From Symbiobacterium thermophilum (GTDB taxonomy: Bacteria > Bacillota > Sulfobacillia > DYFQ01): a stretch of DNA of 64,000 nucleotides. Below are positions 1 to 5,026 of this stretch, piece by piece (positions within the stretch are counted from its first letter, which is position 1; each line of letters starts with the position of its first letter). A program made the position numbers and the translations under genes. The DNA lies in contig DYFQ01000003.1 of NCBI GenBank assembly GCA_020725105.1, positions 12,136-76,135 of the forward strand, written 5' to 3'. Under the pieces are notes generated by a model, which saw only the letters and a program-made list of their open reading frames with translations, did no database searches and was not told the origin of the DNA.

Positions 1-183
1 GTCCAGGAGGCCCAGCTCCTCGGCCAGTTCGAACTTGAGCACCTCGGCCGGGTTGTCGGGATCCGGTTCCAGCTTCTCCTCGGGCTTCCGCTTGCGCTTC
101 TTTCCGGACCTCCCCCGCCCGCCGCCTCCGCCGTCACCGGCGCCGTCCCGATCCGGCTGCTCCACTCCGTGAGGCCTGACCAT
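1..183 (-). CDS. Small acid-soluble spore protein, alpha/beta-type (runs off the window edge)
   Basis: Not in the ORF track. ATG at 183 after GGAGGTGG. Translates MVRPHG...KKRKRKPEEK...EVLKFELAEELGLLD; KxElAeELGL is the SASP first helix. Confidence 0.75.
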   Translation of the reverse strand, partial: MVRPHGVEQPDRDGAGDGGGGGRGRSGKKRKRKPEEKLEPDPDNPAEVLKFELAEELGLLD

Positions 184-254
184 GCCACCACCTCCCCGGG
201 GTAGTCTCCCCAGCGATTGCCAGCCAATCCAGGACATCTCGCGCCGGCCGCCGG

Positions 255-300
255 AAAGGAACGCCGCCCGGTACCCGGTACGGCCGGGCTCCGGGCGGCG
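255..300 (-). terminator. Probable intrinsic terminator after the 26-aa peptide gene
   Basis: Minus-strand stem CGCCGCCCGG...CCGGGCGGCG followed by TTCCTTT. Confidence 0.55.
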
Positions 301-327
301 ACCCCAGAGGTTCAGTCTCGGTTCCGG

Positions 328-408
328 CTACCTCCACTTCAGCCAGGCTCCGCTGGTGAGGACCAGCGCCGCCAGCACGCCGAGAAGATACAGGGCCCGC
401 CACCGCAA
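328..408 (-). CDS. Unannotated 26-aa signal-peptide-like protein MRWRALYLLGVLAALVLTSGAWLKWR
   Basis: RBS GGAGGTGA 5 nt before TTG; stop TAG at 328-330; basic N-region, hydrophobic core, SGA, then WLKWR; downstream terminator. Confidence 0.7.
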   Translation of the reverse strand: MRWRALYLLGVLAALVLTSGAWLKWR

Positions 409-453
409 CCGGGTCACCTCCCCTCAACTCCTGCGCTGCCTCCTCCCCGCGGG

Positions 454-488
454 AAAAGGGGCCCCCGGGGGGCCTGCCGGCCCCCCGG
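454..488 (-). terminator. Possible terminator after the HD-GYP gene
   Basis: Hairpin CCGGGGGGCC-GGCA-GGCCCCCCGG, with TTTT 7 nt later (imperfect spacing). Confidence 0.35.
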
Positions 489-548
489 AAGGCTAGCGGG
501 GATGGGGGCTGGCGAACTCCTCCAACGCTACGGCCATGTCCACCGGCC

Positions 549-1748
549 TCACCGGTCCAGAACTTCCACGATGAACCTGGTCTGGTGCTCCCTGGCCGCC
601 AGGTCCAGCTTGTAGAAGCTGGTCGGCAGCCGTCCATAGGCGTCCCGGACCACCCGGATCACCGGGCGGACCAGCGGAATGACCCCGACCTCTTCCACGA
701 TGCCCTCTTCCCCCGTGCTGAGCCGCACCTTGGTGCCGACCGGGTAGGGGACCACCGTAGCGCAGAAGCTTTGAACCAGCTGGTAGTCGAACTCGAAGCC
801 GGCTCCGGCCATGAGAAAGTCCAGCGCCTCGTGGGGCAGCAGGCGGCGGCGGTGAGGCCGGTCCGACACCAGCGACGTGTACACGTCGGCCAGCGCCACC
901 AGGCGGGCCGAGACGTGGATCTCCTCGCCGCGCAGGCCCTGAGGGTAGCCGGAGCCGTCGTACCGCTCGTGATGCTGCAGCGCGATGGCCTTGGCGAAGG
1001 GAGAGAACCGCTGGTTCGCCTCGAGGATCCGGACGGTGCCGACGGGGTGCCGCCGGACCAGCTCCAGTTCCTGACGGGTGAGGCTTCCCGGCTTCCGACG
1101 AACCTCCCTGGGCACCAGGGCCATGCCCAGGTCGCAGAGAAGCGCGCCCAGACCGATGTCGAACACGCGCAGCCCGAGGCCGTAGTTCTTGGCCAGCGCC
1201 ATGGACACCACGGCCGTGTTGAGCGAGTGAACCACCAGGTGATCCTTGAGGTACTCCTCAAGGCTCCGGTGGCTGACCAGATTGACCACCTTGGAGTTGT
1301 GGTAGGCCAGGTCAAGCTGGATTTCTTTCACCACCGCCGCGATCTCGCGGTGGGGCAGCTCGACCTCGTCGGCGGCCCCGGCCGCTTCTACCTGCTCGAA
1401 GACGCGCCTCAAGAGGTTGACCGCGGCCCAGCGGGTCTCGTCGGAGATGGGCTCGTCCTTCTGGATGGTTCGTTCTTCCCGCCGGGGCGACGCGTGCACG
1501 TACACTTCGGGCACGCCAGCTTCCAGCAGCCGCCGGATGTGCTCCGTCGTCAGCTCGCGGCCGTCGGCGAACAGGTAGACCCCGTCCGAGGTGAACACGG
1601 GCCGGGCCAGCCGGGTTCCCGGGGCCAGGCTCGCCGTGGCCACCCGCATGACGGGCCGGGTCTGGTCGGCGCCCGTCCAGCCGTCCGCCGCCAGATCCGG
1701 CTCGCCGGGCTCAAACATGTCGGCCGGCTCGTGTATTGACCGCTGCAT
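549..1748 (-). CDS. HD-GYP domain protein with a degenerate active site (HD->CD); start uncertain
   Basis: HSLN, LLCDLGM (canonical LLHDIGK), HHERYDGSGYP, ADVYTSL, RPHR, and a C-terminal YPVGT..V.LS.GE module. Confidence 0.85.
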   Translation of the reverse strand: MQRSIHEPADMFEPGEPDLAADGWTGADQTRPVMRVATASLAPGTRLARPVFTSDGVYLFADGRELTTEHIRRLLEAGVPEVYVHASPRREERTIQKDEPISDETRWAAVNLLRRVFEQVEAAGAADEVELPHREIAAVVKEIQLDLAYHNSKVVNLVSHRSLEEYLKDHLVVHSLNTAVVSMALAKNYGLGLRVFDIGLGALLCDLGMALVPREVRRKPGSLTRQELELVRRHPVGTVRILEANQRFSPFAKAIALQHHERYDGSGYPQGLRGEEIHVSARLVALADVYTSLVSDRPHRRRLLPHEALDFLMAGAGFEFDYQLVQSFCATVVPYPVGTKVRLSTGEEGIVEEVGVIPLVRPVIRVVRDAYGRLPTSFYKLDLAAREHQTRFIVEVLDR

Positions 1749-2106
1749 CCTGGCTCACCAGCCGTTCCAGGGAGGCCAGCAACTTCTCGGGCCGGAAGGG
1801 TTTCAGGATGAAATCCCTGGCGCCGGCCCGCAGCGCTTCGACGACCATCGTCTGGTGGCCCATGGCGCTGCAGATGACGATCCTGGCCTGGGGATCCATC
1901 CGCCTGATCTCCTTGACCACTTCGATCCCGTCCATGGCCGGCAGCGTGATCTTCAGCAGCCCCACGTCCGGCCGCAGGCGCTGGTACCGTTCGAGCGCCT
2001 CCTGACCGTCCTCGGCCTCGTCCACCGTGTACCCCCGTTCCCTCAGGAAACGGCTGTACCGGGTGCGGGTGAAGCGACCGTGGTCCACCAGCAAGATCTT
2101 CGCCAT
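1711..2106 (-). CDS. CheY-like single receiver domain lacking the phosphoacceptor Asp
   Basis: Aligns by eye end to end with Bacillus CheY (EAEDG, MDGI, CSAMGHQTMV, AGARDFILKPF) but has VDH and LLKITLP. Confidence 0.85.
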   Translation of the reverse strand: MAKILLVDHGRFTRTRYSRFLRERGYTVDEAEDGQEALERYQRLRPDVGLLKITLPAMDGIEVVKEIRRMDPQARIVICSAMGHQTMVVEALRAGARDFILKPFRPEKLLASLERLVSQDAAVNTRAGRHV

Positions 2107-2196
2107 CACGCATCCCCCGCCGGGCAGGGAGGGTGGCCTCGGCCCCCCGGACCACACCGGCCCGACCCTGGGGCCACCCCTTCCCGCCTCCGTCTT

Positions 2197-2700
2197 CTAG
2201 TACTCCTCACCCACGATCACCTTGAGAGCCTTCATCGCCTCGGTCCAGAGGATCGAGCCGTCACGCAGGTACGAGCCGGGCGTCGGCTTGCCTTCGATCT
2301 GCAGGATCGACGCTGCCCGCAGCCTGGCCTCGATCCACGGGACGGACTCGATCCACGGGATGCTGGTCATGTCCACCGTGTTCGAGGTGCCGTCCGGCCG
2401 CGTGATCGTGACCAGGTTGGTGTTGTCCCCAAGGTTCGAGTAGACGGGCCGGTAGGCGTCCAGGTACCCGGCGCCCTGGACCGTCGCGTCGAAACCCCGG
2501 TCCTCGGCCGTCCCCTTCAACCGATTCTTCACCTGGTTGAGGGTGAGGCTCGGGTCGCGTTCCAGCATGAGCGCGACGGTGCCAGCCGTGAAGTCGGCCG
2601 CCTGCCGAACGCCGCGCTCGCCCCCGTGGCCGACCCCAGGCTCAGGAGCACCAGAGACAAGACCAGTGTCAGCGCCAAAAGCCGCCTGATCTTTTCTCAG
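2197..2700 (-). pseudogene. Remnant of a secreted S8 (subtilisin) protease: frameshifted signal peptide joined to the C-terminal part
   Basis: RBS GGAGGTGA then CTG. Signal peptide KIRRLLALTLVLSLVLLSLGSATGASA lies in a shifted frame. AGTVALMLERDPSLTLNQVKNRLKGTA..QGAGYLDA matches the post-catalytic-Ser part of subtilases. No catalytic triad. Confidence 0.75.
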
Positions 2701-2730
2701 GTTCCGCTCACCTCCCCGCCCAGGATTCCC

Positions 2731-2784
2731 TCAGAGCCACGAGATGATCTTCTCCAGCAGGCCGTACAGGAGCCGTTGGAGCAC
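2731..2784 (-). CDS. Unannotated 17-aa peptide MLQRLLYGLLEKIISWL
   Basis: Strong RBS GGGGAGGTGG 6 nt before GTG; stop is followed shortly by the protease RBS. Confidence 0.5.
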   Translation of the reverse strand: MLQRLLYGLLEKIISWL

Positions 2785-2914
2785 CGGGCTCCACCTCCCC
2801 ATTGCCGCGGGTTGCGCACGGTGGCCACGGAGCCACCTGACGTTCCGGTTGACGCCTGAGCTGGACGCATCGCCGGAGCGGAAGGGCCGAATGCTCCCTG
2901 ACCTCGCCCAGCGA

Positions 2915-3151
2915 TCACCTTCCACTGACGTCGTGCACCAACGCCGCCCGGTGGATGGTCCGGATCGTGGTCGGGTCCAGGCCCAGTTCCCGCGCCAGTT
3001 CCACGGCGAAGTGCTCCACCCGGGTGGAGTGGCCGTAGGTGTGCGGGTCCTTGGCGTTCACCAGGTAGGAGAGGGCCCGGATGATTGCCGGGGTCGAACC
3101 GCCATCAGCGGTGTCTCTTGTCGGTGGCTCCCGACGGCGCCGGATAATCAT
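2915..3151 (-). pseudogene. Truncated HD-GYP phosphodiesterase fragment
   Basis: IRALSYLVNAKDPHTYGHSTRV...ARELGL...AALVHDV, then a stop 3 codons later; no GYP half follows. Confidence 0.8.
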
Positions 3152-3167
3152 GGCACCACATACACGT

Positions 3168-3183
3168 TGCAAGAGTCGTGCCA
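3168..3183 (-). promoter_or_regulatory. Sigma-54 -24/-12 promoter
   Basis: TGGCACGACTCTTGCA matches the TGGCACG-N4-TTGCW consensus exactly. Confidence 0.9.
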
Positions 3184-3278
3184 GCGGGAAAGCATCCGCC
3201 GGACGGCGGGGGTGAGGGAAACTACTGCTAGAAGCCGCGAGGCTCGAGGCTCGGGGGCTGCTCAGGGGCTCCCGGAGG

Positions 3279-3332
3279 TGTCCGGATTCCGGACATGTCC
3301 GGTTTCCGGACACCCTGTCCGGAGACCGGACA
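3279..3332. promoter_or_regulatory. Three palindromic enhancer (UAS) sites, TGTCCGG-N3-CCGGACA
   Basis: Perfect copies at 3279-3295, 3296-3312 and 3316-3332, about 120-175 bp upstream of the predicted sigma-54 start and directly after the activator stop codon. Confidence 0.8.
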
Positions 3333-3334
3333 CT

Positions 3335-5026
3335 CTACCCGGTCAGCCCGTACCGGGAGAGCTTCTCGTAGAAGCTGGAACGGGCGAGGCCCAGGATGCG
3401 GGCGGTCTTGGCCTTGTTCTGGCCGGTGGCTTCCATTATTCGCGCGATCAGGTGGCGTTCCACCGTGGCGACAATGTCTTCCAGGGTCCCGCCCTCGGCC
3501 AGTACGGCTGCCACCTCCGCCACCAGCGCCCGCGGCGCCAGCGGGGCGCTGGCGTCGGGCAGCGGGTCGCGCCCCGCCGGCTGACGTGTTCCGGCTTCCC
3601 CGGTGGCGGGCTGCGGGCGGACCTCCAGCAGCAGGGCGGTCAGGTCGTCCACGGGAAGGTCGGCGGAGAGGACGGCCGCGTCCCTGACGACCTCGTCGAG
3701 GGGCAAGCTCTCGACCAGGTCGCCGCCGACGGCGACACCCTCGGCAGCCTCCCGGCCGTTGCCGGAGAGATGGGGCCGCAGGGCCTCGGCGGTCATCACC
3801 AGCCCGTCCGAGAGGAAGTAGGCGCGCTTCACCACGTTCTCCAGTTCGCGGACGTTACCTGGCCAGGGCTGCTCGGCCAGCAGTTCCAGAGCGTCGGGGG
3901 AAAACTGCTTCCGCAGGCCGGCTGCCGCCCCGGGTCCCCGGTTCAGATCCTCCAGCAGCCGCACGGCGATGAGGGGGATGTCCTCGCGCCGGTCCCTCAG
4001 GGGGGGCAGGGTGATGGTGATGACGGCCAGCCGGTAGTAGAGGTCGTCCCGGAAGCGGCCCCGGGCCACCATGGCCTCCAGGTCCTGGTTGGTGGCGGCG
4101 ATGACCCGGACGTCCACGGCGACCGGCCTGAGGCCCCCCACCCGCTCGACCTCCCGCTCCTGCAGGGCCCGGAGCAGCTTGGACTGGAGCGGCAGCGGGA
4201 TGTCGGCCACCTCGTCCAGGAACAAAGTCCCGCCGCTGGCCAGTTCGAAACGGCCCGGTTTGCCCGTCCTGGCCGCGCCGGTGAAGGCGCCGGGCTCGTA
4301 GCCAAATAGCTCGGCCTCGAACAGTTCTCCCGGCACGGCCGAGCAGTTGATGGCCACGAACCGGCCGGCCGAGCGGTCGGACAGGTGGTGTACGGCCCGG
4401 GCGAACAACTCCTTGCCCGTGCCGCTCTCCCCTGTCAGGAGCACCGTCAGGTCGGAGCGGGCAGCCCGGGCGGCCAGACCCTTGGCGTGCCGGATGGCCC
4501 GGGAGACGCCTTCGATGCGCTGGAGTCCCCAATCGCCGTCGTCGTCCCCCCTGGCCTTGTTACCTCCTCTTTCAACCGCCCCGGGCGGGCCGGGTTCCGG
4601 CCGCGCCCCGGCTCCTGCCGCCGGGGCCGGGGCCACTTCAGCGGGCGCGAGCTTCACCAGCAGGCCGTGGCCATTGGGGCCGGCCGGCACCAGGCGTTCC
4701 CGGACCAGCCAGGTGCGGCGGCCCAGGACGGCCAGGCCTTCGCTGGTCCTTTTGTCGCCGCCGGCGCGGCCACCCGCGACGAGGGAGTCTCCCTGCACGT
4801 AGGTGAGCAGGCCCAGCAAGGGGCGGCCGACCAACCGGTCGGGTCGCTCCTGGCACGCCCGGGCAAACGCCTGGTTGGCCCGGATCACCCGTCCCCGTAG
4901 GTCGGCGATGCAGATGGGTTCTGGGACCTGGTCGAAGACGGCGGCAAACAGCGCCACCATCCGGTCGGCCAGTTGCCCTCCCGCCGTCGCGGCGGCCGGC
5001 GGAGCAGCCTTCCCGGCCAAGCTCAA
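3335..5026 (-). CDS. PAS-domain sigma-54-dependent transcriptional activator (bEBP)
   Basis: PAS-like N-terminus, GESGTGKE, GAFTGA, LFLDEV, WPGNVREL, C-terminal Fis HTH (NKAKTARILGLARSSFYEKL). Confidence 0.95.
   Translation of the reverse strand: MSLAGKAAPPAAATAGGQLADRMVALFAAVFDQVPEPICIADLRGRVIRANQAFARACQERPDRLVGRPLLGLLTYVQGDSLVAGGRAGGDKRTSEGLAVLGRRTWLVRERLVPAGPNGHGLLVKLAPAEVAPAPAAGAGARPEPGPPGAVERGGNKARGDDDGDWGLQRIEGVSRAIRHAKGLAARAARSDLTVLLTGESGTGKELFARAVHHLSDRSAGRFVAINCSAVPGELFEAELFGYEPGAFTGAARTGKPGRFELASGGTLFLDEVADIPLPLQSKLLRALQEREVERVGGLRPVAVDVRVIAATNQDLEAMVARGRFRDDLYYRLAVITITLPPLRDRREDIPLIAVRLLEDLNRGPGAAAGLRKQFSPDALELLAEQPWPGNVRELENVVKRAYFLSDGLVMTAEALRPHLSGNGREAAEGVAVGGDLVESLPLDEVVRDAAVLSADLPVDDLTALLLEVRPQPATGEAGTRQPAGRDPLPDASAPLAPRALVAEVAAVLAEGGTLEDIVATVERHLIARIMEATGQNKAKTARILGLARSSFYEKLSRYGLTG

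Follow-up and report, generated by a model that had tools for sequence, protein, structure and literature searches.

The window analysed here (the whole 64,000-nucleotide (nt) stretch of contig DYFQ01000003.1, assigned to Symbiobacterium thermophilum) carries near its beginning a very short open reading frame (sORF) on the minus strand, which encodes the peptide MRWRALYLLGVLAALVLTSGAWLKWR and lies between a gene for a soluble HD-GYP protein and a gene for a small acid-soluble spore protein (SASP) (Table 1). Judged from sequence comparisons between genomes, this sORF is a genuine, conserved gene, and it is probably expressed; its relatives form a peptide family that is typically encoded just upstream of HD-GYP proteins with a MASE9 sensor domain. 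The source assembly (2.74 Mb, 73 contigs) has a GC content of 70.8%, and because a 26-codon open frame in such GC-rich DNA means nothing alone, the reality of the sORF was judged by cross-genome comparison. Among the 40 nearest genomes compared, none was closer to the source genome than the same class.

The window's ORF listing gives a longer version of 29 amino acids (aa) that starts at a GTG (328..417). We place the start at TTG 408 because the corresponding M-R-W-R begins every relative and a GGAGGTG-like site precedes it by 7-9 nt. A first-pass annotation, made from the sequence alone, had noted a strong ribosome-binding site, and it is there: a GGAGG core at 421-417, inside GGGGAGGUGA, stands 8 nt ahead of the TTG. 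The downstream terminator claimed by the same annotation holds as a structure and less well as a terminator. A hairpin with a 16-bp stem appears in both the minimum free energy (MFE) and the centroid fold, and the transcript contig described below ends at 258; after the stem there is only GUUCCUUUCC (GUUCC in the RNA), a poor U tract, and a scan for the terminator consensus gave 0 minus-strand sites here, leaving the hairpin uncalled.

A second hairpin (488-465), between the HD-GYP gene and the sORF, may be a leaky terminator or a processing or stability element. Upstream of 428, a promoter scan found no sigma-70-like promoter and inspection by eye no convincing sigma-54 or sporulation-sigma site. 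The Rfam 15 covariance models gave 0 matches at E≤1 in window positions 1-3000.

Table 1. Features at the sORF locus and at the related locus on contig C30 of the source genome.
Feature	Coordinates	Strand	Remarks
sORF coding sequence	328..408	-	TTG 408-406, 26 codons (TTG and 25 further sense codons), then TAG 330-328; product MRWRALYLLGVLAALVLTSGAWLKWR
Shine-Dalgarno region GGGGAGGTGA	414..423	-	Read from sequence; GGAGGTG-type site common to all type-A relatives
GC-rich 3' hairpin	258..305	-	Core stem about 262-300; MFE and centroid folds; terminator-like, poor U tract
Hairpin CCGGGGGGCC-GGCA-GGCCCCCCGG (488-465), then GGGCCCCUUUUCCC	451..488	-	Sequence and predicted fold; perfect 10-bp GC stem
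171-nt stretch, one metatranscriptome contig	258..428	- (inferred)	20-nt leader, sORF and 3' hairpin
Soluble HD-GYP protein, 399 aa	549..1748	-	Pfam HD_5 1.2e-26, HD 8e-11; without MASE9 membrane domain
CheY-like receiver (REC) protein, 131 aa	1711..2106	-	Pfam Response_reg 5.1e-29; overlaps the HD-GYP gene start
Alpha/beta-type SASP gene, 5' part	1..237	-	Downstream of the sORF; Pfam SASP 2.1e-6 on the full contig ORF
Type-B sORF on C30, product MARVLKVLLALLALVVAGGANFQIGA	C30:40651-40725	-	Locus L135:2795-2872:-
MASE9-like HD-GYP on C30	C30:39354-40571		Neighbour of the C30 sORF
DUF5317 gene on C30	C30:38534-38977		Follows the C30 HD-GYP gene

A conserved family of short peptides

With the window peptide as sole query, a six-frame search of 210 genomes of the same class gave weak matches (E about 1e-3) in very short frames. 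The type-A relatives found in this way are stand-alone ORFs of exactly 26 codons that start with M-R-W-R, end in S-G-A-F-H-K-W-x and have a GGAGGTG-type ribosome site. A profile of the type-A sequences recovered 8 strong copies in 7 other genomes of the class, together with a series of weaker matches, 20 of which were picked for a short open frame and fetched. Sixteen of these 20 represent a related form of 25 aa, type B, each followed about 750 nt later by an HD-GYP catalytic domain and with the pattern M-[AS]-R-x-x-[KR]-x-x-L-A-L-L-A-L-V-L-A-G-G-A-[NS]-F-Q-W-[GRK]; the other four (L180, L183, L184 and L185) were rejected as unrelated to the family. Members are 23-33 aa long, with a basic N-terminus, a hydrophobic core, the motif [AS]-G-[GSA]-A and a C-terminal x-x-[KQR]-[WVI], and the window ORF shares all of these traits (alignments A1, A2 and A6).

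Membership of the window ORF was also assessed with a profile of 34 relatives from which both copies of the source genome had been excluded, scored against all stop-to-stop frames of ≥20 aa in that genome. Among 50,770 frames, the type-B copy on contig C30 ranked first (41.5 bits) and the window ORF second (26.4 bits, E 1.3e-5), and the third-best frame reached 8.0 bits. This ranking excludes a chance ORF, and the hidden 26-aa frame picked out by the first-pass annotation, which lies on the minus strand (TTG 408 to TAG 328), is placed within the family.

Substitution patterns point to selection on the peptide. For codon pairs that differ by a single base, the ratio of synonymous to nonsynonymous changes in type A (8 genes) is 161:90 in frame, vs. 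90:195 and 14:250 in the other frames; for type B (11 genes) it is 471:135 in frame, vs. 88:482 and 41:515. As read from these codon comparisons, the family is selected as a protein, and in the sORF reading frame only. In a phylum-wide sample, a 24-sequence profile (E≤1e-3) detected the peptide in 90 of 401 genomes and 63 of 278 genera, nearly all matches being in frames of 20-86 aa, and the family also occurs in records of Actinomycetota and Chloroflexota.

The family was previously unannotated and is essentially invisible to annotation. Pfam and NCBIfam hold no model for any form of the peptide, an exact-sequence look-up of 10 members in a collection of 15 billion proteins found 0/10 present, and a literature search for six family peptide motifs found none. 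The profile matched 22 of 1.84 billion representative proteins at E≤1e-3, all of them 24-83 aa in length and matching at their C-terminal end; among the 10 of these representatives that were looked up, any name given was ‘hypothetical protein’. In the ESM Atlas, a 33-aa member matched unnamed clusters of hypothetical proteins of 32-34 aa and nothing else (scores 0.90-0.92), which we treat as a lead only. One of the matches, the predicted 58-aa protein P0015, consists of two peptide units fused head to tail via the charged linker EEGEPKTF, and three Actinomycetota loci (L222, L225 and L240) each have two separate tandem sORFs. Together, the fusion and the tandem arrangements hint that the peptides act as pairs.

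Synteny with MASE9 HD-GYP and DUF5317 genes

Relatives have their type-A loci in the order DUF5317 (PF17248), sORF, and then a protein of roughly 415 aa that combines MASE9 (PF20972) with an HD-GYP domain. In the type-A loci of the class other than the source genome's own, MASE9 plus HD-GYP lies just downstream in 7/7 and DUF5317 just upstream in 6/7. In 28 of 30 loci from the phylum search, an HD-GYP catalytic domain follows on the same strand after 731-807 nt; of the other two, L211 has the MASE9 part alone before the contig end, and in L204 the contig ends 237 nt past the sORF. A further 20 loci were fetched, and 17 of them have the catalytic domain at 655-821 nt on the same strand and one an HD-GYP match at +169, while the last two (L317 and L322) are the orphan copies described below. 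Overall, an HD-GYP catalytic domain follows on the same strand at 655-821 nt in 45 of 50 loci. The first-pass annotation had mentioned, as something it could not verify, that sORFs ending in GAxxxW occur beside HD-GYP genes in other Bacillota; this is correct, and amounts to a strong rule.

DUF5317 is present in 86/90 genomes that carry the sORF, vs. 42/311 of the non-carriers. In 76 of these 86 genomes the DUF5317 and sORF matches are ≤3.5 kb apart on one contig (median 1.76 kb), and from this spacing the usual order at type-B loci is sORF, HD-GYP, DUF5317.

Named genome records were scanned with an alignment of MASE9 HD-GYPs, which yielded 80 loci. Nine of them have an sORF match (E≤0.1) just upstream, and in 9/9 the HD-GYP query match spans the membrane domain. 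These nine come from metagenome-assembled genomes (MAGs) of Coriobacteriales, Slackia heliotrinireducens, Anaerolineae, Thermosediminibacterales, Bacillota and Actinomycetota (three) and from Vallitalea maricola (L234). The Anaerolineae peptide is a 31-aa type-A-like form, and the Actinomycetota MAGs have two tandem copies each, of 23-33 aa. Other full-length loci among the 80 have no sORF match at E≤1.

In a maximum likelihood tree of 26 MASE9 HD-GYPs, type-A peptides go with the enzymes of one clade (support 100/99) and type-B peptides with those of the other. Of the source genome's own enzymes, the one on contig C28 falls in the type-A clade and the one on C30 in the type-B clade. In these sequences, peptide type tracks enzyme clade; co-evolution is not proven, since related genomes share labels.

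The spacer between the sORF and the HD-GYP start (e.g., in L172:3108-3175, L186 and L167) contains a conserved nucleotide motif, YGYCGGYCC, 10-30 nt past the sORF stop; its strict form is present in 34 of 59 unique loci, vs. 4.0 expected from shuffles. It is often followed by a T-run, and looser variants are found in many of the remaining loci. The motif can pair with the GCC-GGC-GG (Ala-Gly-Gly) codons of the sORF, with duplex energies that are favourable but unremarkable for GC-rich sequence. It is a candidate attenuator, processing site or binding site. At gathering score, Rfam models matched none of 20 related loci. In the window, the stretch at 292-303 (GTCGCCGCCCGG) can be compared with this motif.

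Copies in the source genome and orphan copies

The source genome has two DUF5317 genes, on C28 and C30, each beside a MASE9-type HD-GYP gene. On C30, a type-B sORF lies directly upstream of the HD-GYP gene (Table 1), while on C28 no sORF was found in the roughly 110-nt gap between DUF5317 and HD-GYP. The window copy departs from the placement rule of the family: it is not directly upstream of a MASE9-type HD-GYP gene. An HD-GYP gene does lie beside it, as the first-pass annotation had it, and matches HD_5 and HD of Pfam, but it encodes the soluble protein and stops 140 nt upstream of the sORF, so that the sORF is downstream of it; the SASP gene follows. By sequence, the window copy is a diverged type-A member with atypical placement. 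The simplest reading is that a type-A peptide gene left the C28 locus and now stands 140 nt behind a soluble HD-GYP gene that is paired with REC. By our own arithmetic, the chance of landing ≤150 nt from any of the 8-9 HD-GYP genes in 2.74 Mb is roughly 0.001, so the new REC/HD-GYP neighbourhood may be functional too.

A scan of metagenome contigs returned no close relative of the window HD-GYP (best identity 39%), and in 45 loci of distant HD-GYP homologues no sORF-like frame was found downstream, which is the wrong side and the wrong HD-GYP class with respect to the family. Against the MASE9 HD-GYP of locus L117, the window HD-GYP matches weakly, and only within the catalytic part (33% identity, residues 244-404).

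Two further orphan type-A-like copies, L317 (G272:C14) and L322 (G224:C51; L323:4058-4135(+)), have no HD-GYP within 2.6 kb; the orphan type-A-like sequence is MRWRLAYV[ML]LA[LV]LAMVAASGAGFKWV. The G224 copy is about 300 nt behind a gene for a PAS-GAF histidine kinase, and in lying downstream of a signalling gene it resembles the window copy. Because no HD-GYP gene follows the window copy, a strong hairpin and the SASP gene come after it, and the whole peptide has been kept, the window copy would act in trans.

RNA-library cover of the sORF

Eight public sequencing runs contain the stretch or part of it, one of which is RNA, and four runs were compared with window positions 1-2200. The RNA run is a metatranscriptome (X8) from the same study as a likely source sample, and its evidence is a Logan contig. 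That contig (record 25) has 195 nt at a depth of 12.4 and is made up of 24 adapter-like letters, then 393-428, then 258-392. It is therefore a circular permutation of exactly 258-428, with no letters between the two ends at the junction 428|258. Read on the minus strand, the RNA would have its 5' end 3 nt ahead of the ribosome-binding region and its 3' end (258) 4 nt past the hairpin stem. Across window positions 1-2200, X8 has no cover of REC, HD-GYP or SASP from the source genome; the one other contig there differs from 929-971 at 4 positions and continues into unlike sequence, and so comes from another organism.

Because no sigma-70-like promoter precedes 428, the 5' end of the 171-nt RNA may come from processing of a read-through operon transcript. 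The junction could be a library-preparation circularisation of a discrete small RNA, a product of rolling-circle amplification, or a genuine circular RNA.

Neighbouring genes

The SASP gene likely starts at ATG 183, preceded by GGAGGTG, and leaves the window, extending on the contig to C56:11989. Its product is a SASP-family protein with a long Gly/Lys/Arg-rich N-terminal extension ahead of the conserved SASP core. A possible forespore-type promoter was noted by eye at about 210-245, between the sORF hairpin and the SASP ATG.

Beyond the REC gene, a 132-aa ORF (2915-3313(-)) contains only the start of an HD-type domain (…HSTRVEHFAVELARELGL…HRAALVHDV…). At C56:15059-15229 it aligns with the N-terminal section of the HD-GYP catalytic region (E 1.4e-6), and the ORF could be what is left of a truncated HD-GYP gene near the REC/HD-GYP pair. 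Another ORF (3335-5026(-), 563 aa) has by eye the look of a sigma-54-dependent activator, with an AAA+ domain that contains a GAFTGA-like loop and a C-terminal helix-turn-helix.

Possible function of the peptide

In the 36 members compared, 1-4 basic N-terminal residues precede a hydrophobic stretch of 14-18 residues with the small-residue motif at its end, and the tail of 3-6 residues usually has an aromatic residue, then K/Q/R, then W. The signal-peptide-like build that the first-pass annotation described (basic n-region, hydrophobic stretch, S-G-A) is evident in the window copy. Mean net charge is +2.17 in the N flank and +0.75 in the C tail, with N exceeding C in 30/36 members, and the positive-inside rule thus predicts an N-in, C-out orientation.

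The reading that we favour, and to which we give about an even chance of being right, is that the window sORF encodes a single-pass membrane peptide, a small subunit or intramembrane ligand that sets the activity of a MASE9 HD-GYP phosphodiesterase and acts in trans. The peptide would insert in the membrane N-in/C-out and pack on the MASE9 sensor domain, with a small-residue face (A/S-G-G/S-A) and an interfacial K/Q-W tail making the contact; by setting phosphodiesterase activity it would also set the level of cyclic di-GMP (c-di-GMP). The window copy, parted from its putative cognate clade-A HD-GYP on C28, would work in trans from the short, abundant, hairpin-bounded 171-nt RNA. The membrane insertion, the orientation, the physical binding and any effect on the enzyme are inferred.

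A membrane partner is favoured because peptide type tracks enzyme clade, orphans exist with their own transcript, the tail is conserved across phyla, and tandem fusion occurs; the head-to-tail fusion in P0015 is easier to reconcile with a membrane hairpin than with a precursor that is cleaved. The reading also fits a published suggestion: in the preprint that defined MASE9, the only paper found with both MASE9 and HD-GYP, a ligand is proposed to bind within the membrane (bioRxiv 10.1101/2021.11.05.467447). The words ‘peptide’ and ‘upstream’ do not occur in the main text of that preprint. The literature searched describes no small-protein partner of a MASE9 HD-GYP, and the matches that it returned for HD-GYP with a small membrane protein or small ORF were unrelated, as judged by titles and abstract openings. 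Co-folding of the source genome's own C28 MASE9 domain (residues 1-232, 25-row alignment) with the window peptide (24-row alignment) scored 0.09 and 0.11 vs. a mark of 0.32; these values, obtained without controls and for a partner below the sizes used in calibration, speak neither for nor against binding.

Several points weigh against this reading. The carrier genomes are related by kinship, so that the co-occurrence statistics (Fisher p) overstate the support. No protein that fuses the sORF to MASE9/HD-GYP was found among the 22 matches, although so short a profile could miss weak fused forms. The insertion of the peptide and its binding are predictions, and the YGYCGGYCC motif suggests an additional or alternative cis-regulatory role. 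The Logan contig cannot give the strand, its two parts are joined in permuted order, and DNA carry-over is formally possible, although it is unlikely because the flanks are silent in X8. The DNA runs X4 (233-458) and X5 (286-655) show 0 differences, so no signal of selection within the population is obtainable. Finally, signal-peptide h-regions typically have a length like this span of only 14-18 residues, and the motif obeys the -3/-1 rule, which makes cleavage possible.

Cleavage is central to the first alternative, which we regard as unlikely: the sORF would encode a minimal Sec-type signal peptide that is cut after S-G-A (G-G-A in type B) and frees a C-terminal peptide of 4-6 residues to be sensed by the MASE9 HD-GYP, either from outside or inside the membrane. 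The candidates for the freed peptide are WLKWR here and NFQWG or FHKWx elsewhere, and such a peptide would link c-di-GMP to cell density or to autocrine signalling. The n/h/c layout, the small residues at -3 and -1 family-wide and the predicted N-in, C-out orientation agree with export, the G-A motif and the tail are the most conserved parts of the peptide, the gene lies beside a membrane sensor without a known ligand, and the precursor is close in size to those of the SHP/ComS type. However, the [KQR]-W tail is conserved across Bacillota-type, Actinomycetota and Chloroflexota records, whereas the specificities of pheromones usually diversify. It is Gly at -2 that is invariant, not the residue at -1 or -3, and signal peptidase I has no requirement for Gly at -2. 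The module lacks an RRNPP/Rgg receptor, an exporter of its own and a known processing protease, a tandem-fused two-unit form (P0015) exists, and a chain of 26 aa leaves the ribosome before co-translational targeting. The first-pass annotation had likened the sORF to Phr, PapR and ComS pheromone precursors; the layout is compatible with this, but with no RRNPP/Rgg receptor beside the gene, a conserved tail and an invariant Gly at -2, the pheromone reading is possible and not the best supported.

Control in cis is, in our view, distinctly unlikely as the explanation. Here the sORF would be a leader peptide whose translation controls the downstream HD-GYP gene by attenuation, or by ribosome stalling at the conserved C-terminal motif, via RNA structures in the spacer, with no role in trans. 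Two things favour a cis element: the position of the sORF, which in most loci stops about 45-120 nt short of the HD-GYP start, and the enriched spacer motif, with its frequent T-run and its potential to pair with the GCC-GGC-GG codons. The peptide also has the size of TnaC/Erm-type leaders. The pairing, inspected by eye and not by formal covariation, shows one-sided or wobble changes and no compensatory pair, and no Rfam family was found in the 20 loci or in window 1-3000. The window copy and the two orphans keep the full peptide without an HD-GYP downstream, and the window copy has its own hairpin, is followed by an unrelated SASP gene and, out of the whole locus, is alone in having cover in the RNA library. 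The entire hydrophobic core is conserved as protein with free synonymous change, which arrest peptides do not need. The orphan copies and this protein-level conservation of the core argue that the sORF cannot serve as a leader peptide alone.

A hydrophobic peptide akin to type I toxins and paired with an antisense RNA, or a functionless chance ORF, is very improbable: the peptide is short and hydrophobic, no sigma-70-like promoter is found, and the 171-nt contig, whose strand the data do not give, could be an antisense RNA covering the ORF, but conservation across phyla and fixed synteny with HD-GYP and DUF5317 are atypical of toxin-antitoxin loci, selection is specific to the sORF frame, the genome-wide profile rank rules out chance, and the contig ends fit a sense transcript (5' just before the ribosome-binding site, 3' just after the hairpin).

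A confident AlphaFold2 model of DUF5317 (L117:820-1383:+ and 14 homologues, alignment A4; pLDDT 91.0, pTM 0.84) is a helical membrane protein with small beta elements, and the family has an invariant N-G-G-x-M-P and two Asp in GD motifs. A GxGD-type intramembrane protease, considered on account of these two invariant Asp, is unsupported by the model, which matched no solved fold: Foldseek found nothing in the PDB at E≤0.001 (best 1.7), and the best result of VIA-align over 48,161 chains was Z 5.8, on partial helices. A Pfam scan at E≤10 matched only DUF5317, and no literature on DUF5317 was found. A control search also found DUF5317 in Thermotoga maritima and Thermus thermophilus. More speculatively, and with considerable doubt, we suggest that the peptide, DUF5317 and the MASE9 HD-GYP might be a three-part module found in at least three phyla, in which the peptide (intact or processed at the G-G/S-G-A hinge) would be the intramembrane ligand, long sought, by which MASE9 phosphodiesterases are switched, DUF5317 would handle or process it, and orphan copies with high expression, such as that in the window, would set c-di-GMP in the cell or in its neighbours.

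Among c-di-GMP enzymes, the HD-GYP phosphodiesterases are understood least, and we know of no signal for the MASE9 sensor domain. A conserved peptide of some 25 residues whose gene immediately precedes those of MASE9 HD-GYPs is a concrete candidate for a MASE9 partner and indicates an undescribed peptide layer of control over the c-di-GMP pathway. DUF5317 gains a genomic context, and the family exemplifies conserved biology below the length cut-offs of gene callers. If the three-part module were real, it would constitute a peptide-to-c-di-GMP signalling axis, diffusible or membrane-borne, of a kind so far undescribed.

Comparison with known systems

Three kinds of known system resemble the sORF in part. 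Leader peptides such as TnaC and ErmCL likewise have about 20-25 codons, lie a short distance upstream of a gene and have a conserved C-terminal Trp-containing motif at the stop. They differ in that the new family's hydrophobic core is conserved as protein and its orphans have their own terminator and no downstream target. The precursors of Phr, PapR, NprX and SHP/ComS are similarly short, with a basic N-terminus, a hydrophobic stretch and informative C-terminal residues, and are encoded beside the signalling gene that they control. Their receptors, however, are cytoplasmic RRNPP/Rgg proteins reached after Opp import, whereas the sORF is associated with a membrane phosphodiesterase (REC plus HD-GYP in the window). 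No RRNPP or Rgg/ComR-type receptor gene was found beside the sORF, where the neighbours are REC, HD-GYP and SASP (Pfam) and, in relatives, DUF5317 and MASE9 HD-GYP. The tail of the new family is moreover conserved across phyla, and its processing is hypothetical.

Small membrane proteins that modulate or form subunits of larger ones include MgrB and SafA (PhoQ), MgtS (MgtA), AcrZ (AcrB), KdpF and CydX. Among these, E. coli MgtS (31 aa, NC_000913.3), whose partners are MgtA and PitA, is also a single hydrophobic helix, with the end ...S-G-F-L-A-A-Y-F-S-H-K-W-D-D vs. ...A-S-G-A-F-H-K-W-D in type A. This is a likeness of the tails and not demonstrable homology: MgtS scores only 2.3-4.6 bits against three family profiles, and 13-86 of 2000 composition-matched shuffles equal it. 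The mgtS gene (L302, NC_000913.3 1622646-1623850) is two genes from the diguanylate cyclase gene dgcZ.

By analogy, the peptide would work most like these small membrane-protein modulators, while being a member of none of their families. Like them it has a size within 20-40 aa and one hydrophobic helix, and it adjoins, or would act on, a polytopic membrane protein; like them it has been missed by gene callers and could act in trans. It differs in having no sequence relationship to any of them and in its likely partner, a MASE9 c-di-GMP phosphodiesterase, and the new family spans several phyla with DUF5317 as its constant third companion.

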